38,938 nucleotides of DNA. It comes from a virus (taxonomy: Duplodnaviria; Caudoviricetes). The translations under genes and the position numbers were made by a program. A model generated the notes under the pieces. That model had not been told where the DNA came from, ran no database searches, and saw only the letters and a list, made by a program, of their open reading frames with translations. Where the stretch lies: IMG/VR virus record IMGVR_UViG_3300033076_001279, positions 1 to 38,938 of that record; one strand, written 5' to 3'. How positions within the stretch are numbered: position 1 is the stretch's first letter; each line of letters begins with the position of its first letter. This document shows, piece by piece, positions 1 to 32,700 of the stretch.

Positions 1-69
1 GATGGCTACGAAAGGGCTTAGATTATTTGAAAGAATAGTTTAAGCCTTTTCTTTTTAATAGCGTTGGAA
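1..69. repeat. attC-like site 1 (partial, right part only)
   Basis: GATGGCTACG...AGCCTTTTCTTTTTAA-TAGC-GTTGGAA; closely resembles site 2. Confidence 0.8.
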
Positions 70-186: not shown

Positions 187-873
187 ATGCCAATAAGTAA
201 AGTAGAAAATATTGATTGCATCGAGGGAATGAAGCAATTTCCTGATAAATTTTTTGATTTGGCTATTTGCGACCCACCTTATGGAAACGAATCTTCCTAT
301 AACAATAGAAGGAAGTTAAAACCATATGAAAATATTGAGCCTTTACCAGAATATTACTATGAATTATTTAGGATTTCAAAACATCAAATTATTTGGGGTG
401 CAAATTATCTAAGAAATTATGATTTAAAAGGAGGCGGTATTGTTTGGAATAAATTAGGGACTTATACAGAACATAGAAAGCAAGCTCCTACTATTGGGGA
501 CTGTGAATATGCTTTTACCTCTAAAACAAATAATATAAAAATGTTTTCTTATGCTTGGATGGGAAATGTTTTAGGGAATAATTATACAATAAATCCACCT
601 GAATCAAAAGAAAAATTTCATCCAAGTCAAAAACCTATTGCATTATATATTTGGCTACTCGAAAACTACGCAAAGCAAGGCGATAAAATACTTGACACAC
701 ATTTAGGCAGTCAATCGAGCCGAATAGCAGCATACAAGAAAGGCTTTGATTTTTGGGGCTTTGAAATCGACAAAGATTATTTCGAGGAAGGGAACGAAAG
801 GTTTGAAAAATCAATAGCGATGCCTTTGTTTGATAGTATCCGTCCGCAAATGCAGCAACTATCCCTTGTATAA
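187..873 (+). CDS. N6-adenine/N4-cytosine DNA methyltransferase (beta class)
   Basis: DPPY catalytic motif N-terminal, HPSQKP, LDTHLGSQSS SAM-binding motif C-terminal. Confidence 0.92.
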   Translation: MPISKVENIDCIEGMKQFPDKFFDLAICDPPYGNESSYNNRRKLKPYENIEPLPEYYYELFRISKHQIIWGANYLRNYDLKGGGIVWNKLGTYTEHRKQAPTIGDCEYAFTSKTNNIKMFSYAWMGNVLGNNYTINPPESKEKFHPSQKPIALYIWLLENYAKQGDKILDTHLGSQSSRIAAYKKGFDFWGFEIDKDYFEEGNERFEKSIAMPLFDSIRPQMQQLSLV

Positions 874-875
874 AC

Positions 876-963
876 TTCCAACTTTCAGCAAAATGATGGC
901 TACGGAATAAGGCTAAAACTTTGAAATATAGGTTTTAGCCTTTTCTTTTTGCGAACGTTGGAT
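876..963. repeat. attC-like site 2
   Basis: TTCCAAC-TTTCA-GCAAAATG...CTTTTTGC-GAAC-GTTGGAT. Confidence 0.85.
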
Positions 964-1074
964 GTTAAAGGTGCTTGCATTTTTCGCATTAACTTTGTCG
1001 CAAAATAAGTAAGAAAACCTATGGAAATGTCAGAAAAATTTACTATTTTGTAGTATAAATCAAACACTACAAAA

Positions 1075-1914
1075 ATGGTAATTTTAGATTTATTTAGTGG
1101 TATTGGTGGATTTTCAAAAGGGTTAATTGATGCAGGATTTCAATTTGAAACACATTATTTTTCTGAAATTGATAAACACGCAATAGCTAATTATTCTTAC
1201 AATTTTAAAAATTCACATTATGTCGGTTCAGTTACAAATGTTCGAGGAACAGAACTCAAAAGACCAAATATTATCACTTTCGGAAGCCCTTGCCAAGACT
1301 TCTCAATGGCTGGAAAACGATTGGGGATGGAAGGAGAAAGAAGTAGCCTTATCCTTGAAGCAATTAGACTTATATCCGAGTGCAGACCTGACGTATTTAT
1401 CTGGGAAAATGTTAAAGGAACATTCTCCTCAAATGATGGTGCAGACTTTATCGCAATACTCCAAGCCTTTGCCAACATTGGGGGTTATAGAATTGAATGG
1501 CAATTGCTTAATACAGCATGGGTTTTACCCCAAAATAGAGAGCGATTGTACCTTGTTGGACATCTTGCAGGAAGAAGTAAGCTCGGAGTATTTCCTATCG
1601 GAACAGAAAATAGAAAATATCAAGAATTGGAAATCGAGAGAAAACCCACTTTCTCATGTCTTACACGTAGGGGAGCAGGAGAATACCATTCAGGTATGCA
1701 ACTTATTAGAATAAAGAACAAATTAAGAGTTCCAACTGAAATTGAATGTGAAAAAGCACAAGGATTTCCAGAGAATTGGACTAAATATGGCATTAATAGT
1801 GCAGGTATTTATGAAATACCAAGAGTAGAAAGATATAAAATGTTAGGAAATTCAGTAACTACCAAAATAGTAGAATTAGTTGGAAACGGAATTAGAAATT
1901 GCCTTGAAACCTAA
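1075..1914 (+). CDS. C5-cytosine DNA methyltransferase (large/alpha polypeptide)
   Basis: DLFSGIGG (motif I), GSPCQDFS (IV), WENVKG (VI), PQNRERLY (VIII), LGNSV (X). Confidence 0.95.
   Translation: MVILDLFSGIGGFSKGLIDAGFQFETHYFSEIDKHAIANYSYNFKNSHYVGSVTNVRGTELKRPNIITFGSPCQDFSMAGKRLGMEGERSSLILEAIRLISECRPDVFIWENVKGTFSSNDGADFIAILQAFANIGGYRIEWQLLNTAWVLPQNRERLYLVGHLAGRSKLGVFPIGTENRKYQELEIERKPTFSCLTRRGAGEYHSGMQLIRIKNKLRVPTEIECEKAQGFPENWTKYGINSAGIYEIPRVERYKMLGNSVTTKIVELVGNGIRNCLET
1220..1714 (+). CDS. Nested +1-frame ORF, probable beta polypeptide of the C5 methyltransferase
   Basis: 164 codons open in AT-rich DNA inside the MTase gene; CTLLDILQEEVSSEYFLS resembles the motif of M.EcoHK31I-type alternative-frame subunits. 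Confidence 0.65.
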   Translation: MSVQLQMFEEQNSKDQILSLSEALAKTSQWLENDWGWKEKEVALSLKQLDLYPSADLTYLSGKMLKEHSPQMMVQTLSQYSKPLPTLGVIELNGNCLIQHGFYPKIESDCTLLDILQEEVSSEYFLSEQKIENIKNWKSRENPLSHVLHVGEQENTIQVCNLLE

Positions 1915-1915
1915 C

Positions 1916-2002
1916 TTCCAACTTATAGCAAAAAGATGGCTTATACCATATTTCCGAAATCAGGAAAATGGTTTTAGCCTTTACTTTTTGCGTGCGTTGG
2001 AC
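1916..2002. repeat. attC-like site 3
   Basis: TTCCAAC-TTATA-GCAAAAAG...CTTTTTGC-GTGC-GTTGGAC. Confidence 0.85.
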
Positions 2003-2090
2003 GACAAATTAACTAAAAATACCTCGCTAATTTCTTGTCCAAGTGATGCAAATTGACTAAATTATGGCATAATCAAACAATAAAAATAAA

Positions 2091-2276
2091 ATGACTGGAA
2101 AAGAAATGATAAAAATAATTCAAGATAATGGTCTTGAAGACTTTAAAATAAAAATCAATAAACTTGTTTCAAGAGATGGGAATTGGAGCTTTAATTTAGA
2201 GTCTTATTTTTTAGACTCAATGGTTGATATAGGGCATTCTGATAGAACGGTAACTTTTGATTTAATTGACGATTAA
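2091..2276 (+). CDS. Hypothetical cassette protein
   Basis: ORF with A-rich leader inside cassette 3. Confidence 0.7.
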   Translation: MTGKEMIKIIQDNGLEDFKIKINKLVSRDGNWSFNLESYFLDSMVDIGHSDRTVTFDLIDD

Positions 2277-2277
2277 T

Positions 2278-2454
2278 ATGGAAAACAGAAAATTTACAGA
2301 AGAAGACTTTCACGCTGTTGGATGGCATTTTGAAGCGTATTTTATAGAAGTTCTCAATAAAGAATATGATTTAGAAGACGCAATAAACGATTTACGTGGG
2401 CTTATTGGCTCAAAGTATGATTCAAGGGTAATTCAAGAATCATCGAATAAGTAA
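2278..2454 (+). CDS. Hypothetical cassette protein (start probably ATG 2278)
   Basis: Starts 1 nt after the previous stop; its own stop abuts site 4. Confidence 0.7.
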   Translation: MENRKFTEEDFHAVGWHFEAYFIEVLNKEYDLEDAINDLRGLIGSKYDSRVIQESSNK

Positions 2455-2455
2455 C

Positions 2456-2542
2456 TTCCAACTTTTAGTAAAAAGATGCTTGGTTTTAAAGTATCTTTTT
2501 GCTAAATTAGGTATTAACATTTACTTTTTACGAGCGTTGGAA
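2456..2542. repeat. attC-like site 4
   Basis: TTCCAAC-TTTTA-GTAAAAAG...CTTTTTAC-GAGC-GTTGGAA. Confidence 0.85.
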
Positions 2543-2600
2543 TCAAAGCACTTTGAAGTATCAAAGTGAGTTGATGTCCGCAAACCAATAAAATAAAAAT

Positions 2601-2927
2601 ATGCTAATTAAAGAAGCTACTTACGAAAATGTAATGGTTGAAACAAGAAAAAGAGTTTCAGATGATGTTTTTGGCTGTGATTGTTGTGAAAAAGAAATAA
2701 AAGAGTATCCAAACGAAAACAGTAGATTAGAGCTTACTGTTTTTAAAGGCAATTCTGATGATGCTGAACACTTGCACTTTTGCTCGTGGGAGTGTGTTTT
2801 GAAACAACTTCCTAAAATAAAAACTGATTATTTTATAAGTTTACCCTTTGTTTATTTTGATGAAAAATGTGAAGATAAACGTTCAGGAAATGAATTAATA
2901 TCTTTGCTGAAAAGATTGAAGATATAG
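2601..2927 (+). CDS. Hypothetical cassette protein, possible Zn-binding (CDCC...FCSWEC)
   Basis: Paired Cys motifs reminiscent of TRASH/treble-clef fingers; fills cassette 4. Confidence 0.7.
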   Translation: MLIKEATYENVMVETRKRVSDDVFGCDCCEKEIKEYPNENSRLELTVFKGNSDDAEHLHFCSWECVLKQLPKIKTDYFISLPFVYFDEKCEDKRSGNELISLLKRLKI

Positions 2928-2930
2928 CAC

Positions 2931-3009
2931 TTCCAACGCCTTGATGGGCGATGGAATAGTGATTTTTGACAAAAAATAGGCTTTCATTTACGCCTATCTA
3001 ATGTTGGAA
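2931..3009. repeat. attC-like site 5
   Basis: TTCCAAC-GCCTT-GATGGGCG...CGCCTATC-TAAT-GTTGGAA. Confidence 0.85.
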
Positions 3010-3057
3010 CTCAAACAAATTTTAAATTACAAAAGCGACTGAAAGTCGCACGACATT

Positions 3058-3300
3058 ATGAAAGAACAAGTTTTTTTTTGTGCCGCACATGGAAAAAATG
3101 TTGGCGAAAGAGTAACAATAACAGGCTCATCAGTTAATCAAGTAAAGGGTAAGCTACGAAAAAGTTTTATAGAAGGAATTATCATTGGCGGTGGCACAAT
3201 TTGGGAAAAACACGAGAAGGGTCTTGGATGGCATAAAAGCGTTGCAAGTTGGAGTCCACGCACAAAAACAACTCTGAAAGCTAAGCATATTTTAGAGTAG
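3058..3300 (+). CDS. Hypothetical basic cassette protein
   Basis: ORF fills cassette 5. Confidence 0.7.
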   Translation: MKEQVFFCAAHGKNVGERVTITGSSVNQVKGKLRKSFIEGIIIGGGTIWEKHEKGLGWHKSVASWSPRTKTTLKAKHILE

Positions 3301-3305
3301 AAAAT

Positions 3306-3392
3306 TTCCAACCAAAAGCATTATGAAGATTGGAAAATAATGCTTATATTAGATAAGAAATAACAAACTTTTACTTAATGCGAGCGTTGGAA
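3306..3392. repeat. attC-like site 6
   Basis: TTCCAAC-CAAAA-GCATTATG...CTTAATGC-GAGC-GTTGGAA. Confidence 0.85.
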
Positions 3393-3451
3393 TCAAAGCA
3401 CTTTGAAGTATCAGAGTGAGTTGATGTCCGCAAACCAAAACAAATAAAACT

Positions 3452-3811
3452 ATGAGAATAGAATTAGAGAAAATACCTGTAAAAAATGAGGGAGGAACAA
3501 ACAATATAACTTGTAATTTGATTGAATTAGGGTTAGAAAGTTTAAACCCATATTTTCATGTTACAATCATTTTAAATAACGAATTATATCAAACAATTAG
3601 AAAAGTGTATCCGCCAGATGATTATATAATTGGAGCAAATGAAGTTGATTTCTTTGTTAATAATGATATTCTAAATAACTGTTTAGTTGTAATTCAAAAT
3701 TTGAACTTACCACACAAAATTGAAAATTTTGTTACAACTTATAAAATATTTGAGTTTGGAGATATTACGGAGTTTATTAAAACAATAGGGGTAAAAGCAA
3801 CAAAAATATAA
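3452..3811 (+). CDS. Hypothetical cassette protein
   Basis: ORF fills cassette 6. Confidence 0.75.
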   Translation: MRIELEKIPVKNEGGTNNITCNLIELGLESLNPYFHVTIILNNELYQTIRKVYPPDDYIIGANEVDFFVNNDILNNCLVVIQNLNLPHKIENFVTTYKIFEFGDITEFIKTIGVKATKI

Positions 3812-3834
3812 TAAATGTTTAGCGAATAAGCAAC

Positions 3835-3920
3835 TTCCAACTAAAAGCATTGAGAAGTTTTGAAATAAAATATCTTTTTGCTATATTGTTTAATACATTT
3901 TCTTAATGCGAGCGTTGGAA
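3835..3920. repeat. attC-like site 7
   Basis: TTCCAAC-TAAAA-GCATTGAG...CTTAATGC-GAGC-GTTGGAA. Confidence 0.85.
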
Positions 3921-3962
3921 TACAAATATTTTTAAATTATTTTTCTAATATGATGTCGCAAA

Positions 3963-4394
3963 ATGAATATACTTAACAGATTACCTAAATGGCAAATTGA
4001 AAAGGTGCTTAATCAGCCAAATTGTGATATAGATTTGGATTTTTTAGGATTTTTAGATATTTATGAAACGCTATCAAAAATAATTCCTAAATATTTCACA
4101 GTTGTTGATTTAGGGTGTGCATACAATCCGCAGTGTTTCTTTTTTGAAGAACATAAATCATATTTGGCTGTTGATATATCTGATTGCGTGAAATTTCAAG
4201 CAAAAAATTGTGAAATTTTTCAAAAAAGCATAAGTGAATTTATTAATGAAAATTTAAGTAATTTGAATTTAGAAGAAACATTTGCTATATGCAGTTATGT
4301 GCCATCTTGGGGTGGAGATAATGGAAAAATAGCAAGAGATACATTTAAAAATGTTTTTGTATATTATCCATCATCAACTCGTGAAATATCGTAG
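3963..4394 (+). CDS. Small SAM-dependent methyltransferase-fold protein
   Basis: VVDLGCAY (motif I-like) followed by YLAVDIS (motif II-like). Confidence 0.6.
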   Translation: MNILNRLPKWQIEKVLNQPNCDIDLDFLGFLDIYETLSKIIPKYFTVVDLGCAYNPQCFFFEEHKSYLAVDISDCVKFQAKNCEIFQKSISEFINENLSNLNLEETFAICSYVPSWGGDNGKIARDTFKNVFVYYPSSTREIS

Positions 4395-4403
4395 AATAAG
4401 CAC

Positions 4404-4489
4404 TTCCAACCAAATTGATTCTGATGGCTTGGTAGTGATTTATGATTTGAAAAAAAAGTTTTAGCCTTTTCAGAATCATGACGTTGGAA
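4404..4489. repeat. attC-like site 8
   Basis: TTCCAAC-CAAAT-TGATTCTG...CAGAATCA-TGAC-GTTGGAA. Confidence 0.85.
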
Positions 4490-4605
4490 GGCAAGGGAAT
4501 TTCTTTACTCCAACGCTGTATAAATGTCGCCAAATAAATTTATGTAAATGCTTGACTATTAGGTGATTAATTAGTATTTTTAGGTATTACTAAATTTAAT
4601 TTTAA

Positions 4606-5298
4606 ATGATAAAATCTAATAATCTACTGCATGGAGATTGCTTTTTAGCAATAAAAGAAATAGAAGACAATAGTGTTGATTTAATTGTTACTGACCCCCC
4701 ATACGGAATAAACTTTACCAAAGGTTATAAAAGTGGCTCAACAGAATTAGTTCATGGTGATGATGGGTTTTCGGTAATGGTTTTTGTTGATGAGTTGATG
4801 AAAGAGTTTAAAAGGGTTTTAAGACCTGATAGTGCAATTTATATTTTTACACGTTTTGACGTAATGCCGTATTGGTGGTTAAAAATAAAGAATTATTTTG
4901 ACACAAAAAATCAAATAGTATGGTTTAAAGGCGGCGGTGGAATGGGAGATTTGACTGGAAATTTTTCTTTTAATTATGAAAGTATAATGTTTGCTACAAA
5001 TGGAAAACATAAAATAAGAGGGAAAAGAGATGGTTCAGTTTGGCAAATTGGCAAATGCAAGCAAGAATACCATGAAACACAAAAACCCGTTGAATTAATT
5101 GAAAAAATCATAAAACATAGCACAGACGAAGGAATGACAGTCTTTGACCCCTTTATGGGAAGCGGCACAACTGGGGTAGCTTGCAAAAATTTGAATAGGA
5201 ATTTTATTGGAATTGAAATGATAGAATCTAATTTTAATATTGCAAAAAAAAGAATAGAATCTCATTGTCCGCAAGTAAATTTATTGTCCCTTGTGTAA
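4606..5298 (+). CDS. N6-adenine/N4-cytosine DNA methyltransferase (beta class)
   Basis: VTDPPY, HETQKP, FDPFMGSGTTG. Confidence 0.95.
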   Translation: MIKSNNLLHGDCFLAIKEIEDNSVDLIVTDPPYGINFTKGYKSGSTELVHGDDGFSVMVFVDELMKEFKRVLRPDSAIYIFTRFDVMPYWWLKIKNYFDTKNQIVWFKGGGGMGDLTGNFSFNYESIMFATNGKHKIRGKRDGSVWQIGKCKQEYHETQKPVELIEKIIKHSTDEGMTVFDPFMGSGTTGVACKNLNRNFIGIEMIESNFNIAKKRIESHCPQVNLLSLV

Positions 5299-5300
5299 AC

Positions 5301-5388
5301 TTCCAACTAAAAGCATTGAGATGGTTGGGTTTTAGAGTTAATTTATTGATTTACAATTACTTACCTTTTCTTAATGCGGATGTTGGAA
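5301..5388. repeat. attC-like site 9
   Basis: TTCCAAC-TAAAA-GCATTGAG...CTTAATGC-GGAT-GTTGGAA. Confidence 0.85.
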
Positions 5389-5476
5389 CGCTAAGGAGTT
5401 AGAAAAAACCTCGCTAATTTCTTGTCCAAGTGATAAAAATTGACTAAATTATTAGCATAATTCAAACACAAAAACT

Positions 5477-5779
5477 ATGGAAATCAATCATGCCCCTCAA
5501 ATTGTTTCATTTGCTCATATTGACCCTAATACAAAAGATTTATATACTTATTACTTCCAAATAACCAAAGGGAAAATATGGCTTCATTCTATTGATAAAT
5601 GGGAGAAAAATGGAAGGACTGGAAATGGTTACAAACATGAAGAAGTTTTTCATTTTGAATATAAAAATACAATTACAAATTATGAAACAGGGGAATTTGA
5701 ACAGCCCAAAGTTCCTGAATATTTAATGAATAATGCAAAACTATTTTTTATTGGTTACGTGGCAAATAATTGTATATAA
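5477..5779 (+). CDS. Hypothetical cassette protein
   Basis: ORF with AAAACTATG start context in cassette 9. Confidence 0.75.
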   Translation: MEINHAPQIVSFAHIDPNTKDLYTYYFQITKGKIWLHSIDKWEKNGRTGNGYKHEEVFHFEYKNTITNYETGEFEQPKVPEYLMNNAKLFFIGYVANNCI

Positions 5780-5787
5780 ATAAACCT

Positions 5788-6006
5788 ATGAGTAAAATGA
5801 AAAAAGTAATTTGCTATATATTTGGGCATAAAGAAGAAGATTTTACAGATTCTGGCTATATGATTTGTAAAAGATGTAAATGTCACGAATATTATGACGG
5901 TTGGGGAATTGGTATTTTTGCATCTATTTGGCAAAGAATAAAACGAAAAATTGGAAGGATAAAAGATGAAATTTACTATCAAATTTTTAATGAATTGCCG
6001 TTTTAA
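5788..6006 (+). CDS. Small hypothetical protein with C..GH...CxRC motif (DUF1660-like); start uncertain
   Basis: ICYIFGHK...ICKRC pattern typical of small phage Zn-binding proteins; stop just before site 10. Confidence 0.65.
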   Translation: MSKMKKVICYIFGHKEEDFTDSGYMICKRCKCHEYYDGWGIGIFASIWQRIKRKIGRIKDEIYYQIFNELPF

Positions 6007-6010
6007 GCAC

Positions 6011-6089
6011 TTCCAACTTTGGCATTTGAGATGCCGAAGTATTTTAAAACTTAAAATTGCGTAGCGTTTGCTTAAATGCTATGTTGGAA
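6011..6089. repeat. attC-like site 10
   Basis: TTCCAAC-TTTGG-CATTTGAG...CTTAAATG-CTAT-GTTGGAA. Confidence 0.85.
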
Positions 6090-6148
6090 GATGCGGAACT
6101 TTCAAATCCGCTCTAATCAAATGTCTCTGAGAACCAAAAAACAAGAAT

Positions 6149-6373
6149 ATGATTTTATTGCAATTTGATAGAATGAAAGAATTTGTTGAAACAATGCAGC
6201 CTTTCATTGAAAAATATAGAAGCGAATATCATAAAAACGTATTTGAAATTGATAGCACTGTTTGCTACGATGAATATGAATTGTACGAATATTTACATAA
6301 TAATGGAGAAATTACAGAAAAATTTGAATTTGCTTTACATTTTTCTGAATTTGGGCATATAATCAAACATTAG
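6149..6373 (+). CDS. Hypothetical cassette protein
   Basis: ORF fills cassette 10. Confidence 0.7.
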   Translation: MILLQFDRMKEFVETMQPFIEKYRSEYHKNVFEIDSTVCYDEYELYEYLHNNGEITEKFEFALHFSEFGHIIKH

Positions 6374-6385
6374 CGTAGAACAATT

Positions 6386-6473
6386 TTCCAACTCATAGTA
6401 ATGAGATGGCTTTGGTTAAAAGTTGAATTAAATGGTTGTGGTTTCGAGCCTTTTCTTATTACGGATGTTGGAA
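6386..6473. repeat. attC-like site 11
   Basis: TTCCAAC-TCATA-GTAATGAG...CTTATTAC-GGAT-GTTGGAA. Confidence 0.85.
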
Positions 6474-6664
6474 CACAAGTTTAGATTGCAAACTCGCTGA
6501 ACAAACGTCCAAGTGATGAATGAGTCACAAACCAAACAAACTGCCGAGTAGTAAAATTATTGAAATGTTGGTCGCATTCTTTGTAACTACTCGCCAATTT
6601 GCTGTCGGTTTGATGCTTGCACCCTTTGAATAAGTCCAAAGGGAGTGCTTGTCGAAATGATTTG
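6474..6664. ncRNA. ORF-less structured cassette, candidate ncRNA
   Basis: No + strand ORF; nested stems CAAACC/GGTTTG and CGAGTAGT/ACTACTCG, then hairpin GCACCCTTTG/CAAAGGGAGTGC. Confidence 0.45.
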
Positions 6665-6715
6665 TCCAACTACATAAACGACAATCTAAATTAGTTAAAA
6701 CTTTTTAAATTGTCA
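6665..6715 (-). other. Candidate attI-like primary recombination site
   Basis: Array ends with a lone TCCAAC core lacking a GTTGGA partner, followed by TACATAAAC and the inverted repeat GACAATCTAAA...TTTAAATTGTC. Confidence 0.5.
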
Positions 6716-6718
6716 AGT

Positions 6719-7234
6719 TTATGTTTTCTTTTTTTTCAGACTCGAATAGGGTTGATTTACTTTTAGATTCATTAGAGAATCTTGTAAAAATTGCACTTTA
6801 CATTTTAGCTTTTGCTGCTCTACTTTCAGTTTCTGTATTTCTTCTGAGTTTTGCTTGGTGGATAATACATTTTGTAAAAACGTGTATATAGCAATAAATG
6901 AACCTATGAGTATTGTAATATTTTTAACCCAAAACTCAAAGGTTATTTTAAATTTTTCCCATCCTTCTTTTAAATATTTTTCCGACTTATATGAGTTTAC
7001 CCCTTCTTCTAAAAGTCCAATTGTATCTGGATTGTTGTTTCTTTTATATAAGACTTCGCTTGAAGATTCTAATTCATAAACAGTTTTTTTTATTAAAGGT
7101 ACTTCATAAGACAAGATATTTGATAGCTCTTTCAATGAATATAAATCATGGCTATTAAATCGCTCTTTTGGCATTTTCCAAAGAGCTTCTAATATTTTGT
7201 GTTTAATTCTATATTTTTGAGGTATTATTTTCAT
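6719..7234 (-). CDS. Hypothetical protein: wHTH-like N-terminus, one TM segment, coiled coil (start probably ATG 7234)
   Basis: Hydrophobic ITILIGSFIAIYTFL followed by a heptad-rich tail. Confidence 0.65.
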   Translation of the reverse strand: MKIIPQKYRIKHKILEALWKMPKERFNSHDLYSLKELSNILSYEVPLIKKTVYELESSSEVLYKRNNNPDTIGLLEEGVNSYKSEKYLKEGWEKFKITFEFWVKNITILIGSFIAIYTFLQNVLSTKQNSEEIQKLKVEQQKLKCKVQFLQDSLMNLKVNQPYSSLKKKKT

Positions 7235-7256
7235 TTTTCCAACGTACAAAAACACT

Positions 7257-7289
7257 ACTTCGGTTAAATGTATTAACCGAAGTTTTTTT
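7257..7289. terminator. Intrinsic terminator, probably bidirectional
   Basis: ACTTCGGTTAA-ATGTA-TTAACCGAAGT with T-rich tails on both strands. Confidence 0.75.
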
Positions 7290-7666
7290 TATAGCTGACT
7301 TTCAAAATAAAATACTCCATTGAACGGCTTATCAACTGTTATATCAAATAGTTGAGAAATTTTTTTCATGTATTCAATGCGTTTCAATGCTTTATTAGAT
7401 TTGGTTGTTTTGGGCAATTTAGCCAGCCGAATGTGAAAAGTTTTCATATATTCTCGAAACTGTTCTAAATCTTTTCCTCGTTTGTAATGATTGATAATTG
7501 AAATACATGGGATAAGATTATAAAACTCATCAGCATTGCCTTCTACATATTTTTGCTTAAATCTATATTGTGGCATGACGTGGTCTATTTGCCAATCATT
7601 GCCTAAAATTTGCCCTGTGTAAGCACAACGACCGCCAAATCTTGTTTGTACTTGTTCTCTTTTCAT
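7289..7666 (-). CDS. HNH endonuclease-family protein
   Basis: GRCAYTG...WQIDHVMP...NLIPC...INHYK. Confidence 0.85.
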   Translation of the reverse strand: MKREQVQTRFGGRCAYTGQILGNDWQIDHVMPQYRFKQKYVEGNADEFYNLIPCISIINHYKRGKDLEQFREYMKTFHIRLAKLPKTTKSNKALKRIEYMKKISQLFDITVDKPFNGVFYFESQL

Positions 7667-7702
7667 TTAGCTTCTATTTTTTGTACTTCAATAGAATTAA
7701 TA

Positions 7703-7915
7703 TTAATCGCATAATTCAAGTTCACTCGCTTTAAATTCATTACATACGCCATCTTTTATTTTTAAACCCCATTGAAACTCTCCATCTTCAATGTCTTTTA
7801 TACTTTTTGCCCTCCATAATTCACATGGCTGTTTAAATATATGACTACAATTCACAGAATCTTTTGCTTTAATTTTTGTGCCAATTGGCAATTTTAATAA
7901 ATCAGTAGGTTTCAT
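7703..7915 (-). CDS. Hypothetical protein
   Basis: ORF in operon context. Confidence 0.65.
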   Translation of the reverse strand: MKPTDLLKLPIGTKIKAKDSVNCSHIFKQPCELWRAKSIKDIEDGEFQWGLKIKDGVCNEFKASELELCD

Positions 7916-9865: not shown

Positions 9866-10577
9866 CTAAGTAATTTTTGTTTTTCTCAATCATATCATAA
9901 TAATCTTTTGCAAGTTTGTTTAGATATTTTCGAGCTTCATTAACTGAATTTTGAATTGTTAGTATGCAAGTTTCAAATAATTCAACATCAAATACTTTAA
10001 AACGGCATTCCATTGGAATATGAGAATAAGAAAATTTTTTTCTTAGTTCTTCAAGTGCTTCTTGATACTCTACTGAATCATTTGAAGTAAATTTACCTTG
10101 CCAAAAAAGTTTCATTTCTTCATCAGCAAGTAATGTATCAGGCATATCTGCAAGAATATAAAATAAACGCCCTTTTTCTCGATTGAGAAGGTACAAATAC
10201 CCTTTTATTTGCCATTCATATTCCCATGTTAAATGAGCCTTCCCAAACGTAAATAAATCGTAAGCATTTTTGATGTCATAAACGTAATCTTCCATAATTA
10301 CGTCAGGTTCGCCATGGATAAATTCATTTCTAAAACGCTCACGATTTTTTGCTACAAATCGGTCTTTGTAAAAGATTTTTTGAAGGAAATCACGACCGTC
10401 TTGTTCACAAATAATACCTTTTTCAAAGTATTTTGAAATAATTTCTTTTTGTATTTTATAGATTTCTCCTACAAACAAATCATTCAAATATGTTTTATTT
10501 TGGTCAGTTAATTTTCCTGATTTAGAAACTATTTTACCAAGAGCCGAACATCGAAATTGATAATTATCAAAAATCAT
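9831..10577 (-). CDS. YqaJ/lambda-type recombination exonuclease
   Basis: FRCSALG, KGIICE, GEPD...DIK, YEWQIKGY; adjacent to RecT. Confidence 0.85.
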   Translation of the reverse strand: MIFDNYQFRCSALGKIVSKSGKLTDQNKTYLNDLFVGEIYKIQKEIISKYFEKGIICEQDGRDFLQKIFYKDRFVAKNRERFRNEFIHGEPDVIMEDYVYDIKNAYDLFTFGKAHLTWEYEWQIKGYLYLLNREKGRLFYILADMPDTLLADEEMKLFWQGKFTSNDSVEYQEALEELRKKFSYSHIPMECRFKVFDVELFETCILTIQNSVNEARKYLNKLAKDYYDMIEKNKNYLDARTNINTIRS

Positions 10578-11449
10578 AATTGAGAAAGTTTTGCTTCATA
10601 GTAATCACGTAATCCCAAATCATTAACACTGCCTTCAACATCTTTTAATTGTTGCTTTGTAGTGGCTGAATCAATAAATTGTTTACAACGCTCAATTTCT
10701 TTTTCGAGTGCAATTTCATCGGCTGTTACTGGCTCATTGTCAATATATTGCACTTCAAGTGTATCACTATTTTTTATTACAGATTGGTCTGCAATTACAG
10801 CAGTTTGCATATCGACTGAAAGAATACCAAATTTTGATAATAGCATTTTTATTACTGTTTTCTTTGCCATGCTATCAAAATCATCTTGCCATAAACCAAA
10901 GCCCTTTTTATAAGTTTGGGAAAACTTTTTGCCATGTTTTTCAAGTTCTTCTTTACTCATGTATATAGACTTTCTGAATCCGTTTAAAAGTTCTATATAT
11001 GCTACGTAGCCAATAACTGGCCGTTCAATTCTTTCATTACGTGGTTGCCATTTGAATTGAATTTCTCCACTTAAAAAGTCCTCATATTCAATTTCATCTT
11101 CACGTACATCTGTAACGTTTATTGTTTTGTACTGTCCAGAACGTTGAGCAAGTTGAATGTAGGCTTTGTAGCCTAATTGAAATTGTGCCAATTGTTTACC
11201 ACTTTTTCGGTCATTAAAAGGCACTATATAAGCCAAACCGAGCGAGTTATTCAATGGTAAATCAAGAGTAGCAGCAGTAGCGGCAGCAGTATAAACACTT
11301 TGTGGGTCTGCGTTTCGTAGCATATCATTTGAATTAACAATCTGTAAAACAGACGTAATAAATGATGCAGAACGTTTTCCAAGTAGTTGTCCGAACTTTT
11401 CTTGTACATTTTTTTGTGCAAAAAAGTCTTTTGTAGTAAGATTTGACAT
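10574..11449 (-). CDS. recT: RecT-family single-strand annealing protein
   Basis: LGLAYIVPF, AQFQLGYKAYIQLAQRSGQY, MAKKTVIKMLLSK. Confidence 0.93.
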   Translation of the reverse strand: MSNLTTKDFFAQKNVQEKFGQLLGKRSASFITSVLQIVNSNDMLRNADPQSVYTAAATAATLDLPLNNSLGLAYIVPFNDRKSGKQLAQFQLGYKAYIQLAQRSGQYKTINVTDVREDEIEYEDFLSGEIQFKWQPRNERIERPVIGYVAYIELLNGFRKSIYMSKEELEKHGKKFSQTYKKGFGLWQDDFDSMAKKTVIKMLLSKFGILSVDMQTAVIADQSVIKNSDTLEVQYIDNEPVTADEIALEKEIERCKQFIDSATTKQQLKDVEGSVNDLGLRDYYEAKLSQL

Positions 11450-17288: not shown

Positions 17289-18632
17289 ATGAAAACACTT
17301 GCAATCATTCGAAAAATGACAGCTATCTCTGTAACCTATCGTTTCCGCCGCTCTCGTGGCAAAAATGAAAATCAAGGGCATATTCAAGTTTGCATCAAAA
17401 TTAAAGACTTTGATTATTCCCCCCTTACTTACAAACACAATGTAGAAAAATCGGTATGGGATGCAATTAATGAACCTAAAAAAGCAAAATCGAAAGAAAT
17501 TCAATTCAAAAGTATTGAGCTAAAAAAGGAGCTTGACGAATTTGTAAATACCATTCGTGCGACTTATGTTTTACTTTCTAATCAGGAACAAGAAATAATA
17601 ACAGCACATGACCTTGTTTATTATAACACAAAAACATCCGAAATTCAAAAGAAAAAAATTGAAGTTAGTAATTTATCATCTTTGATTGATGATTTTATTG
17701 AAAAAAATAAAGAAAAAGTTTTAGATAAAATTGTTCCTTTTAAGATTAAAAATAAGATTACAAAAGGAACATTCAGAAACTACAAAAAATACCAGCAAAA
17801 AATAAATGATTATCTATCTTATTCAAAACAAAAATATGTTTCAATACATAATGTAGATTTATTATTTATTGAAGGATTAGAAAAGTATTTAGACGCTAAA
17901 TATAGCACTTCATACACTGCAAAAATTATAAAATTTGTAATACAAATAATGGATTATGCAGTTAATTGTCGATATGTAAAAGTTAATTACTTGAACAATT
18001 ATAAAACTTTTTCAGGCATTCCAAGTGAGCCTTTTAATATTCCAGAAGAGGATATTAATAAGATAGAATTTTATCAATTTTATGATTCAGTAGAAAGGAG
18101 GTACGTTAATGCTTGGTTATTAGCTCGTGAACTTGCTTTACACTTTATTGATTATGCAGATTTGAAAAATGAAAACATTAATTTGAAAGATTTTTATGAA
18201 ATTGAAAATATGCAAAAAGTTTTTCATTTCGACCAAATACCAATCAAGAAAAAACAAAAAGTTTATGCTTTTCAAAAGGTTAGAGTAAAATCAAAAATAT
18301 TTCAAAACTCAATATTTACACCTCGTGCCGTAAGAATGTTTGAATATTTTGATAAAAATGTATTAATGATGCCTTTGAATGGCAAATATTCATCAATAAC
18401 CTCATTTTCTAAAATATTACGCCCAGCATTGCAAAAGGCACTTAATAGTGATGTTAATTATGTATTTTCTCATGCAAGGGATTCGATGATTTATCATCTT
18501 CTTCGTATGAAATCGCACGACCGTTTTATCATGGCAATAGCAGGGTGGCGTTCACTCGATGAATTACACAGATACGCTCGTGTTGATAATCAAATTCTTT
18601 TTGATTCAAAATATTACTCAAAAAGTGCTTGA
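17289..18632 (+). CDS. int: Phage integrase (Bacteroidota arm-binding + SAM-like + catalytic domains), divergent active site
   Basis: N-terminal beta-rich arm-binding-like region, ITKGTFRNY, C-terminal SHARDS..AGW..RY. Confidence 0.8.
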   Translation: MKTLAIIRKMTAISVTYRFRRSRGKNENQGHIQVCIKIKDFDYSPLTYKHNVEKSVWDAINEPKKAKSKEIQFKSIELKKELDEFVNTIRATYVLLSNQEQEIITAHDLVYYNTKTSEIQKKKIEVSNLSSLIDDFIEKNKEKVLDKIVPFKIKNKITKGTFRNYKKYQQKINDYLSYSKQKYVSIHNVDLLFIEGLEKYLDAKYSTSYTAKIIKFVIQIMDYAVNCRYVKVNYLNNYKTFSGIPSEPFNIPEEDINKIEFYQFYDSVERRYVNAWLLARELALHFIDYADLKNENINLKDFYEIENMQKVFHFDQIPIKKKQKVYAFQKVRVKSKIFQNSIFTPRAVRMFEYFDKNVLMMPLNGKYSSITSFSKILRPALQKALNSDVNYVFSHARDSMIYHLLRMKSHDRFIMAIAGWRSLDELHRYARVDNQILFDSKYYSKSA

Positions 18633-28980: not shown

Positions 28981-29484
28981 ATGACAAATGAAGAACAATT
29001 TGATGCTTTACAAGCTGAAATAAATGAATCTCGTATTCTTATTGAAAAAGGCGTTCAATTTAAGGTAAAAAAACAAAGTTTATTAAAATATCTTTCAAAG
29101 AATCAAGAAAGAAATTTTATAATTCAACAGCCATTTTTAGGCACATTAGATTTAATAAGTGAATTGTTTTTAAAAATAAATTTTGACGAAGAATTAATAA
29201 AAGCAAATCCTCTTTCTGAATCTAAACTTTTAGTTAGCAAAACGGCTAAAATTTGCTCTTTGGTTGTTGCAATTTCTGTTTTGAATAACCGAATACTTAT
29301 AAAGTTATTTTCAAAAATATTGGCTTCATATTTTTTATGGCGTTTAAAGCCTTCTGATTTATTCAACATTGCCTTGATAATTAATCAAATCAATAATTAC
29401 GGGGATTTTACAAACTCTATCAGATTGATGTCAATAATAAGGACGACAGCACCGAATCTGATAGAGAAAAAACAAGCGGTTTAA
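28981..29484 (+). CDS. Tail assembly chaperone (gpG-like)
   Basis: Position between tail tube and tape measure genes. Confidence 0.75.
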   Translation: MTNEEQFDALQAEINESRILIEKGVQFKVKKQSLLKYLSKNQERNFIIQQPFLGTLDLISELFLKINFDEELIKANPLSESKLLVSKTAKICSLVVAISVLNNRILIKLFSKILASYFLWRLKPSDLFNIALIINQINNYGDFTNSIRLMSIIRTTAPNLIEKKQAV

Positions 29485-29708: not shown

Positions 29709-32700
29709 TGAACGGAAATAACGCTCTTGATTTTGAAGCAGTATTGAAAAAAACTGATTTTGATAAGTCTATTGCAGATTTAGAAAGAAGAATAATAGGG
29801 TTTACTGGTAAAACGGTTTCGGAAACTAAAAAAATAAATGATGCTTTTTCAAATATTAGTAAAGTAGCTGCTGGAGCGTTTGCGTTTACTCAACTTTCTC
29901 AATTGCCAAATCAAATTGTAAAAGTTAGAGGTGAATTTCAGAATCTTGAAATAGCTTTTACTACAATGTTGAAAAGCAAGGCACAAGCTGATAAATTACT
30001 TGCTGATATTACACAATTTGCTGCTAAAACACCATTTACGCTTACTGATGTAGCCACAGGTGCAAAACAATTGCTTGCTTATGGTGGAAGTGTTAAGACT
30101 GTTATTGATGAAATAAAAATACTTGGTGATGTTTCGGCTGGTGTTTCTGCTCCAATTGGCGATTTGATTTATTTGTATGGCACGCTTCGTACACAAGGAC
30201 GTGCTTATTCTGTGGATATTAAACAATTTGCTGCAAGAGGTATTCCGATTTATGAAGAATTAGCTAAGGTTTTAAAAATAAACAGTGCAGAAGTTGCGGC
30301 ATTTGTTGAGGCTGGCAAAGTAGGATTTAAGGAGGTTGAGCAAGCATTTAAAAATATGACATCAGCAGGTGGGATATTTGAAGGATTAACTGAAAAAACA
30401 TCTAAATCACTTACTGGATTACTTTCAAACTTTCAAGATGCTATTGATAGAGCGTTTAACGGTATTGGGAAAAGTCAAGAAGGTTTAATTGCATCTACAA
30501 TTATTGGTGCAACAGAAGTAGTGAATAATTATGAGGATATTTTAGATATTTTAAAGGTAATTGTAGCTACCTATGGCACTTATAAAGCAGCTATTATTGT
30601 AACAACAGCTTTACAATCAGCATCTACAATGAGTGCCGCTATTTCAGCATGGTTTTCTTTGGCTCGTTCAATTAAAACTGCTGCTGATGCCCAGGCATTG
30701 TTCAATTTAACTACTAAGGCTAATCCTTATGCCATTGCATTAGGGGCATTGGCTGCATTGGTTTCTTATTTGTATGTTTATTCTGATGAAACAAAGAAAA
30801 TTGTAACCACCACAGAATTACTTGCAGATGCAAATAAACAGTTTGAAACTAATATAAGAAAAGAACGTGCAGAAGTTGAAAGTTTAGTTAGTGTATTAAA
30901 GAATCAGAACGTTGCGGAATCGGTTCGTTTAGATGCCTACAATAAACTTAAAACTATAAACCCTGATATTCTTAAAGGTTTAGATTTTCAAGCCGCTAAA
31001 ACGGCAGATTTGACGAAGGCGACAAATGAATATTTGATTTCTTTGGAGAAAAAAATAAGGCTTGAAGCAAATCAAGAAAAGTTAAAAACAGCTATTGAAC
31101 AACAAGTTCAAGCAGAGGAAGATTTAGTTAAAGCTAAAGAAAAATATAATCAAATATCAAAGCAAAAAGTAAATGTTCCTACTGGTTTAGATGCTCGTGG
31201 AGGTGGTGTTGGAAAAGCAATGGATTTGGCTAAGGCTAAACAAGATATTGATAAGGCACAAGCAGTATTTACGCAAACTTTGAACACTGTTATTGACATT
31301 AAACAACAGACTGAAAAGATTTATAATACTGATTCAAGAGAATATCTGCAGAATCAAATTAAAAGTCTTGAAATGCAGAAAAATGCTATTAAAGACAAAT
31401 TAAGCCCTGCTTATAAAGAACTTGAAAACCGAATTGCAAGTGTAAGTAAACAATTAGAAATTAAAAATCCGAAAGCTCAAAAATCATTTGCTGAATTATT
31501 AGCAGAAGCTAATGATGCAGGTAATTTATTGTTACTTAAATCACAAGCGAAAACTGAAAATCAGATTGATGCACTATCTAAAAAGGTTGAGGAAAGGAAA
31601 AAAGACCTTGATAAATCATCTGCTGACTATAAAAAGTTAGATAAACTATACAAAGATTTAAACCCTAAAACTAATACATCAAGTAATAAAGAAATATTTC
31701 CGTATGGCTCATTGAAATATTGGGAGCAAGTAGCTAAGAAAGCAGAGGAAATAATTGGTAAAACACCTGCATCAAATTTAGATAAAATTAAGGCTCAAAA
31801 TGATATTAAGATTAAAGCCGAATTAGAAGCTGAAAAGATTAGGAAATCTTTGATAGTTCGTAGTTTTGATGAAGAAATTGAGTATAAAAAAACGCAATAT
31901 GATTTGTATCAAAAATGGGTTTTAACTTACGGAAAAGAAGCATCTGATAAGCAATTTTCTAAACTTGTTGCAAGTGGAGATAGTTATAAAAAATATCTTG
32001 AAAATGAGATAAACAAACTTCAATCAAAAGTAAATACAGGCACTGCTACTGTTGATGATAAAAATAATCTTATTAAGGCACAAGTAGCGTTAGATATTGA
32101 TACTAATAGCCTTGATATTTATAAACAAAAGATTATTGAGGCACAAGACAGTGTTGATACATTAACCGAATACTTAATTATTTTACAAAATGAACAGGAT
32201 AAATTAGGCGGAAAAGACTTAGAAAAAACTAAATTTATTGCTGAACAAATTGTTGAAGCTGAAAAGAAACGACAACAATTGCTCAAAGATTTTTTTATTG
32301 AAGCAAATGTACACGAACAAAAAGTTATTACTACTCAAAAATATTATGATGAATTAAGATTAGAACTTGACAAGCAATATTCAAATAAGAAAAGTAAAAT
32401 TTATTTAGATGCTTTAGATGCAATTAACAAAGAGGAAGCTAAAGCCCTAAAAGATTTAAAACTTGATGAGTTTTTTAAAAAGTCAGAAGGATTTAAAGAG
32501 CTAAATGATACAATAATTGGCACGGAATCACAAGTAAACAAAAAAAGAATTGAGCAATTAAAAGATATTTTATCAGAATTAGAAAAGGCTGGATTATCAA
32601 ATACAAAGGCTTATAAAGACTATTTAAAAGACCTAATCAGTTATCAGAACCAACTTATTGATTCTCAAATTTCAGGATTTTATGAGTTGGCAAATATTTT

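Follow-up and report, generated by a model that had tools for sequence, protein, structure and literature searches.

A predicted integron-like array with flipped cassette genes, next to a tyrosine recombinase without the I2 element, in a tailed phage genome

The DNA analysed here (hereafter the window) comprises a single virus record of 38,938 nt, IMG/VR IMGVR_UViG_3300033076_001279 (Duplodnaviria; Caudoviricetes), which encodes a terminase, a portal protein, a capsid protein, a tape measure protein, RecT and two tyrosine recombinases. Its leftmost 7.2 kb consist of a row of small genes alternating with hairpins, three of the genes encoding DNA methylases, and the present analysis deals with this row and with the recombinase encoded beside it, P0001. 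Ten complete hairpins of the form TTCCAAC...GTTGGAN were found, starting at positions 876, 1916, 2456, 2931, 3306, 3835, 4404, 5301, 6011 and 6386, and the window holds at least eleven cassettes (hairpins S0 to S10 and cassettes c0 to c10 in Table 1). The array ends at 7243; the original prediction, which was made from the window alone and closed it at 6715, had omitted an eleventh cassette and a likely attI site beyond that limit.

The sites share one plan, in which the left box TTCCAAC is followed by 5 nt, an 8-bp arm, a variable middle, two to three extra T-rich bases, the second arm, 4 nt and the right box GTTGGAN. Boxes of attC type and paired arms with spacers of 4-6 nt were present in all ten complete sites, with 5 nt on the left and 4 nt on the right in each. 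Read on the + strand, the arm mismatches comprise five G·T, no C·A and two T·T. As had been predicted, one G·T lies in the 8-bp arm of each of the sites at 2931, 3835, 5301, 6011 and 6386 (the fifth, seventh, ninth, tenth and eleventh if the cut site is counted as the first), and four of these five share one arm position, so that the five cannot be counted as independent. Within the inner stems a further six G·T and two C·A are found on the + strand, the latter at 2456 and 6011. The extra bases were located on the right, GTTGGA-side arm in 9/10 sites, again as predicted, their letters being T in 17 cases, A in four and G in one; the script could not place the bulge of site 3835. The suggested comparison of folding energies came out on the same side, the minimum free energy favouring the + strand in nine sites with one tie (gaps of 0.1-5.0 kcal/mol, the two largest, at 2456 and 6011, stemming from non-canonical folds), and the ensemble energy favouring it in 9/10 by a mean of 1.7 kcal/mol. 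Taken by itself, the window gives a strand signal that is consistent but modest.

The analysis was extended with a motif built from the window sites, which found matches in 15 stretches of viral, 98 of metagenome and 73 of genome sequence (overlapping loci included). A model trained on these matches yielded 293 distinct sites, of which 44 are viral, 147 chromosomal and 102 metagenomic, and it returned no match in any of three shuffles of a 160-kb contig. The hairpin family also builds long chromosomal arrays in Emticicia and other Spirosomataceae (Bacteroidota), with 74 sites of a single polarity on one 160-kb contig (G002:C2:1-160352) and 39 on another (G001:C10:1-55000); both of these Emticicia arrays hold exact duplicate cassettes. 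A family-wide DNA search gave matches in 13/301 genomes, confined to hairpins, one trailer and the C5 methylase. On the strand written as +, arm G·T outnumbers C·A by 18:3 in the viral, 88:0 in the chromosomal and 66:4 in the metagenome sites (172 vs 7 over all 293), and at arm position 6 a G·T is found in 157 sites and a C·A in one; the sites share descent, and these counts are not independent events. The ensemble energy is lower on the equivalent of the + strand in 37/44 viral, 133/147 chromosomal and 96/102 metagenome sites. The shorter spacer on the GTTGGA side, which had been listed as a further sign of polarity, holds throughout the window but was rejected as a general mark, as the right spacers of the chromosomal sites measure 4, 5 and 6 nt in 57, 65 and 25 cases, respectively (the site model set the left spacer to 5; for the window sites, a freer scan again returned 5 nt on the left and 4 nt on the right). 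On the recombined bottom strand of attC, the accessible text of Nivina et al. (PMC5027507) places the extrahelical bases opposite the AAC triplet and gives averages of 1.24 vs 0.39 for G·T pairs. Because the bulge opposite the + strand AAC and the G·T pairs on + match this signature, the + strand would correspond to the attC bottom strand, and the proposal that the coding strand is the folded one gains support from both marks.

The orientation of the genes relative to the hairpins was scored on the longest open reading frame (ORF) of each segment. In the window, 10/11 cassettes carry a flipped ORF, the attI-proximal c10 being classical. Viral cassettes (five contigs, with the window) are flipped in 34/35 cases, one having no ORF; their flipped ORFs lie on the + strand and stop a median of 5 nt before the box. 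Chromosomal cassettes are classical in 121/135 cases, with 12 flipped (part of these calls being doubtful) and two without an ORF, and the classical ORFs lie on the opposite strand with their starts a median of 19 nt from the box. Metagenome cassettes divide 26 vs 26, mostly contig by contig. The original prediction had concluded that the polarity of the sites is inverted. Because these hairpins also occur with classical ORFs, both in host chromosomes and in c10, the sequences argue instead that the predicted platform of hairpin, attI and recombinase is of ordinary polarity and that the flipped part is the cargo ORF, in ten of the eleven cassettes. Inversion of whole cassettes by top-strand recombination was also considered and rejected, since it would turn hairpin and gene jointly, yet the hairpins are all of the same polarity. 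Most of the phage genes upstream of other arrays point in the direction of the flipped ORFs. The motif TAnnTTTG, which we take to be the Bacteroidota promoter motif, follows 6/34 viral hairpins, barely above the 3.6 seen in shuffles. In the first 220 nt to the right of the hairpin in chromosomal classical cassettes it occurs in 41 and 57 of 121 on the two strands, vs 5 in shuffles, and the cassette tails of host arrays may drive the next cassette.

Repeated cassettes allow the travelling hairpin to be identified. Among 222 cassettes, ten homologous pairs in eight families were found, and in nine of these (seven families) the left hairpin is common at 0.92-1.00, the right hairpin reaches 0.49-0.70 and both flanks differ, the identity spanning from one left TTCCAAC to the next. 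The remaining pair is divergent and ties, at 0.68 for the left and 0.69 for the right hairpin. The hairpin that stays linked to a homologous gene is the left one in seven of the eight families, with one tie, and the cassette boundary in those seven lies at the R' box with the rest of the attC retained; the claim of a crossover at the TTCCAAC beside each stop codon is supported in so far as repeated cassettes break at left boxes. Two apparent flipped pairs, L035/L092 and L055/L056, were discarded as overlapping or identical sequence, the latter two being loci of one contig. In phages, a 1,517-nt contig of run X2, from another study, matches the window at 3835-4402 only (28 differences, one gap), that is, over hairpin S6 and its gene up to the next left box, and the main contig of run X1 is identical to the window from base 876 rightwards and carries different sequence to the left. 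The match of S10 and its trailer to a host chromosome likewise begins at the left box. The crossover would thus be bracketed to the 7-nt left box, with the exact A|C cut adopted from work on IntI. Coverage of 108-810 in run X1 is about 5x vs 33x, and in the main form of that run a different sequence adjoins 876 on the left, with additional hairpins beyond it; the real array is longer than the window shows and may be polymorphic, or else the contig tip is chimeric. A relative of c3 (63% identical, L208) is an ordinary phage gene without hairpins, which fits a making of cassettes by capture of phage genes.

P0001 retains all six catalytic residues (R155, K180, H250, R253, H276 and Y285), and its predicted structure is that of a Xer/IntI-fold protein (pLDDT 82). 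At the insertion of VchIntIA (PDB 2a3v) it is without about 37 residues, the match there being split (query 196 to 234 vs 176 to 251). Against TIGR02249 it scores 138.7 bits in two stretches (cut-off 265), and four host enzymes likewise remain under that cut-off, at 186-196 bits; against the curated XerC, XerD and XerA models it scores 150, 143 and 167 bits (cut-offs 335, 330 and 220). By sequence and by structure its nearest solved relatives are XerA proteins. In all five host genomes the best match of P0001 (33-37%) is the array-linked enzyme; the two Emticicia arrays named above stand beside or apart from a recombinase of 383-395 aa that lacks the I2 element and has a 100-aa N-terminal extension. 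Within the window, the link between P0001 and the array rests on position. A single-sequence scan of viral contigs detected no close relative of P0001; the protein set held one at 51%, and annotated phages gave only matches of 26-33%. Run X2 has contigs with 88-91% similarity to stretches of the P0001 gene and of the gene next to it, their link to an array not being shown.

The recombinase-proximal end is formed by the eleventh cassette, consisting of S10, a 250-nt trailer and a minus-strand ORF of 171 aa whose start lies 2 nt away from a lone box (7237-7243). No right box follows this box before 9582. It lies 694 nt from the P0001 gene, with two unrelated ORFs in between, and in 5/5 host genomes the best P0001 match adjoins an array in equal geometry, its strand relative to the hairpins being the same, and a lone box follows about 460-520 nt beyond that match ("lone" is meant by the site model; the host box of G004 has, 90 nt away, a word that resembles a right box and is accompanied by an offset repeat). 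From this arrangement 7237-7243 is likely the attI core, and c10 would be the latest acquisition, derived from a host. Growth of the array from the recombinase end, as had been envisaged, fits a lone attI-like box placed between array and recombinase as in the five host chromosomes. An attI at the lone TGTCCAAC (6664) was rejected, as this word falls within the trailer common to the host cassette and is not conserved there. A terminator-like hairpin (7257-7283), with T runs in both directions, lies 13 nt from the lone box.

The interpretation that we consider probable, at roughly two chances in three, is that a tailed phage carries an integron-like array in which ten of eleven genes are flipped relative to the hairpin, each gene and the hairpin preceding it travel together, the coding strand folds, and the adjacent recombinase inserts cassettes at 7237-7243. 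In this scheme the + strand of the hairpin would fold as single-stranded DNA, and the recombinase would cut the left AAC at A|C, on the model of attC. A circle of hairpin body, leader and gene would be released and re-inserted at attI, the enzyme being P0001, alone or together with the related enzyme of the host, and resolution would be replicative. Transcription of the flipped ORFs would come in from the far end of the array, where the phage operon lies, because the terminator-like hairpin would shield attI from the recombinase-side transcript; in contrast to integrons, the newest cassettes would then be the most distant from the promoter. Only genes facing the same way as that operon would be expressed, and cassettes would derive from ordinary phage genes. 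If the genes run with the replication fork, flipping would also place the folded strand on the lagging-strand template, where, in the accessible text of Loot et al. (PMC5371416), the bottom strand folds more. The GC skew of the window tracks gene direction and did not yield a replication origin.

Several observations weigh against this interpretation. The energy gaps between the strands are small, canonical arm pairing is likelier on + in just 6/10 window sites, and the bulge script gave +2/+3 in only 16/44 viral sites. All ten homologous pairs come from chromosomes, a metagenome sequence being the partner in one of them, and among the fetched loci there was no homologous pair of flipped phage cassettes, the phage case consisting of two contig observations. 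One X1 contig is identical to the window over 1-76 and differs from there on, to the right of hairpin S0, a pattern opposite to that of the other contigs; the hairpin may have been reused with another gene, or the assembly may have been joined at the contig tip. The attI-like box resembles the host sites weakly beyond the core box. As to the enzyme, none of five other viral records with such arrays, one of them complete, encodes a relative of P0001, and of 80 viral loci with related recombinases two had at least three attC-like sites, none belonging to the hairpin family of the window. Finally, P0001 is without I2, the element which, in the accessible part of PMC7790495, docks the extrahelical bases in IntI and blocks the second strand exchange.

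The absence of P0001 relatives from those five viral arrays also bears on the alternative that survives best, although we regard it as unlikely: the unit and its polarity would be the same, the host chromosomal integrase of 383-395 aa would do the work, and P0001 would be redundant or unrelated. Exchange with host arrays fits this alternative. Identity to host sites is 96% for S8 and 93% for the S10 end, and a host array contains two phage-type hairpins, in short cassettes at G002:C2:154038 and 157126, one of them with a flipped 73-aa ORF. The two unrelated ORFs between P0001 and the lone box point the same way. Against it, P0001 is intact, its strand is as in the host integrases and its distance from the lone box is similar, and its best match in every one of the five host genomes is the array-linked integrase. 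Because of the likeness of S8 to a common host site and of the two phage-type hairpins within a host array, cassette exchange between host and phage seems, from sequence comparison, to be two-way.

The lack of I2 in P0001 and its nearness to XerA would also suit double-stranded, Xer-like recombination at a simple left site (box, 5-nt spacer and arm), with folding serving, for example, as an RNA signal. The left box is near-constant (282/293) and the right one variable, a difference which the search pattern biases, and in the phage the better-folding strand is the mRNA strand. We nevertheless judge this improbable, at about one chance in ten, given that the arms vary while pairing is kept (G-C/C-G/T-A swaps) and that in the hosts the G·T bias falls on the same hairpin strand, which is antisense to 121/135 ORFs, where a role in mRNA fails to explain it; an Rfam search of the sites gave no match beyond one weak chance hit. 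Least probable, by a little, is that the hairpins are homology linkers for module shuffling of the RecT type, or that the crossover is at the right box with classical polarity: a RecT gene is present and one X1 contig diverges just right of S0, yet 8/10 window hairpins are only 62-73% identical to their nearest relatives, identical duplicates are bounded by left boxes in 7/8 families with none clearly favouring the right hairpin, and host arrays have a conserved lone box and recombinase next to them.

Table 1. Coordinates of the array, the likely attI and neighbouring features in the window (phage array reading; strand "." where none is assigned).
Feature	Position	Strand	Remark
Hairpin S0	1..69	+	truncated by contig end; array extends further left in run X1
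c0 ORF, N6/N4 DNA methylase	187..873	+	flipped; low-depth form in run X1
Hairpin S1	876..963	+	+ strand is the predicted recombinogenic strand
c1 ORF, C5 cytosine methylase	1075..1914	+	flipped
Hairpin S2	1916..2002	+	
c2, two small ORFs	2091..2454	+	flipped
Hairpin S3	2456..2542	+	
c3 ORF	2601..2927	+	relative L208 has no flanking hairpins
Hairpin S4	2931..3009	+	G·T at arm position 4
c4 ORF	3058..3300	+	flipped
Hairpin S5	3306..3392	+	
c5 ORF	3452..3811	+	flipped
Cassette c6: hairpin S6 (3835-3920) and ORF ending 4394	3835..4402	+	same unit in run X2 contig, other flanks
Hairpin S7	4404..4489	+	
c7 ORF, N6/N4 DNA methylase	4606..5298	+	flipped
Hairpin S8	5301..5388	+	close to common attC-like site of Emticicia chromosomal arrays
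c8, two small ORFs	5477..6006	+	flipped
Hairpin S9	6011..6089	+	94% identical to site in another flipped array (L055)
c9 ORF	6149..6373	+	flipped
Hairpin S10 and 250-nt trailer	6386..6723	+	close to Spirosomataceae chromosomal cassette end
c10 ORF, 171 aa	6719..7234	-	classical orientation; ATG 2 nt from attI-like box
Lone box, no hairpin partner	7237..7243	.	likely attI core
Terminator-like hairpin	7257..7283	.	T runs on both strands
Two ORFs (125 and 70 aa) separating P0001 from the likely attI	7289..7915	-	
Tyrosine recombinase P0001, 301 aa	7937..8842	-	six catalytic residues present; no IntI I2 insertion
RecT gene	10574-11449		
Second, larger tyrosine recombinase, SAM-like domain	17289-18632		

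The second tyrosine recombinase is likely the prophage integrase, available for lysogeny, and the 125-aa protein encoded between attI and P0001 has a 51% identical relative within another phage array. Three of the 13 cassette ORFs were searched in large collections and all 13 against the fetched loci; no relatives of ORF 3963-4391 (c6) or ORF 6722-7234 (c10) were found in the large collections. Two further features of the sites were observed. The hairpins at 6011-6089 and L002:13231 have a long identical middle and differing arms, which suggests that the hairpins are modular. A conserved motif, approximately CGCT-N8-9-TGTC(C/G), lies 20-45 nt to the right of each right box (e.g. 984-1002, 2023-2042 and 5409-5428), its GTC being 32-35 nt from the right box in 11/11 sites; a stricter form of the pattern matches 73/135 host and 15/35 viral cassettes. 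This motif is possibly an extra binding site.

With integrons (IntI/attI/attC, after VchIntIA and the accessible text of PMC5027507) the array shares boxes of the RYYYAAC/GTTRRRY type, paired arms, unpaired bases opposite the cleaved AAC, an excess of G·T on one strand, a single array polarity, a lone box near a tyrosine recombinase and a cassette cut at an R'-like box. There are also differences. The phage recombinase is without I2, being about 37 residues shorter there than VchIntIA. In place of an extrahelical G within L'' and a distal T (the separate G16/T20/T24 bases), the phage sites have a continuous 8-bp arm with a fixed G·T at position 6, followed by one T-rich bulge of 2-3 nt. The ORF is not on the top strand, upstream of attC and read from Pc, in 10/11 window and 34/35 viral cassettes, and a terminator-like hairpin, not Pc, adjoins the likely phage attI, with the recombinase gene pointing towards the array. 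The array would work like an integron, then, but a non-canonical one in its lack of I2, its bulge pattern and its ORF polarity, its activity being a prediction. The Treponema-type integrons have an integrase gene co-oriented with the cassettes, a true IntI and classical ORFs. They share with the window and the Emticicia arrays a recombinase gene on the top strand and an attI downstream of its 3' end. XerA, XerC and XerD (PDB 4a8e, 5hxy) are like P0001 in size, fold and absence of I2; they differ in that P0001 remains under their curated cut-offs and its relatives adjoin cassette arrays.

Clusters of attC sites lacking integron integrases (CALINs) are already known from phages. The window would be classed with them by the definition of IntI, yet a recombinase of the type found beside arrays adjoins it. 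Qi et al. 2023 (PMC9892861) listed 17 phage CALINs, and IntI1 used five of the six sites tested; the attC arrays of those phages often occur with orphan DNA methyltransferases, of which the window has three, whereas neither systematic ORF inversion nor an I2-less enzyme is described in the accessible text of that paper. The same paper gives divergent attC directions in the Polaribacter phage P12002L (L309). There the flanking genes are encoded on the published bottom strand of attC1 (29175-29245) but not on that of attC2 (30005-30059); the one of the two that IntI1 failed to use is attC1, and both sites belong to a sequence family different from that of the window hairpins. Bacteroidota are among the phyla with integrons in the accessible text of Ghaly et al. 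(PMC8618304). We found no description of flipped phage cassettes or of I2-less arrays in the literature searched, subscription papers being mostly out of reach, and the flipped-ORF polarity rule is new within that literature.

A broader model can be offered tentatively, with the balance slightly against its holding as a whole. Bacteroidota and their phages would share one cassette pool, in which integron-like recombinases without the I2 helix join folded single strands, relying instead on a T bulge and on a G·T wobble at a constant position. The same hairpin would carry genes either way and the replicon would select, classical on the chromosome and flipped in the phage, and the window would be a complete working example, in which an intact recombinase and an attI stand together with ten cassettes of phage type and a recently captured one of host type. 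If this is true, one small construct could show whether the I2 helix, regarded as the defining element of integron integrases, is required for the recombination of folded strands. The model also bears on the origin of cassettes, as near-identical hairpins occur with genes in both directions and the relative of c3 is an ordinary phage gene. Such enzymes score under the IntI profile cut-offs, and annotation tools therefore likely miss the platform. The findings suggest that phages can store and shuffle methylases and other accessory genes on the hosts' own platform and trade cassettes with their hosts.

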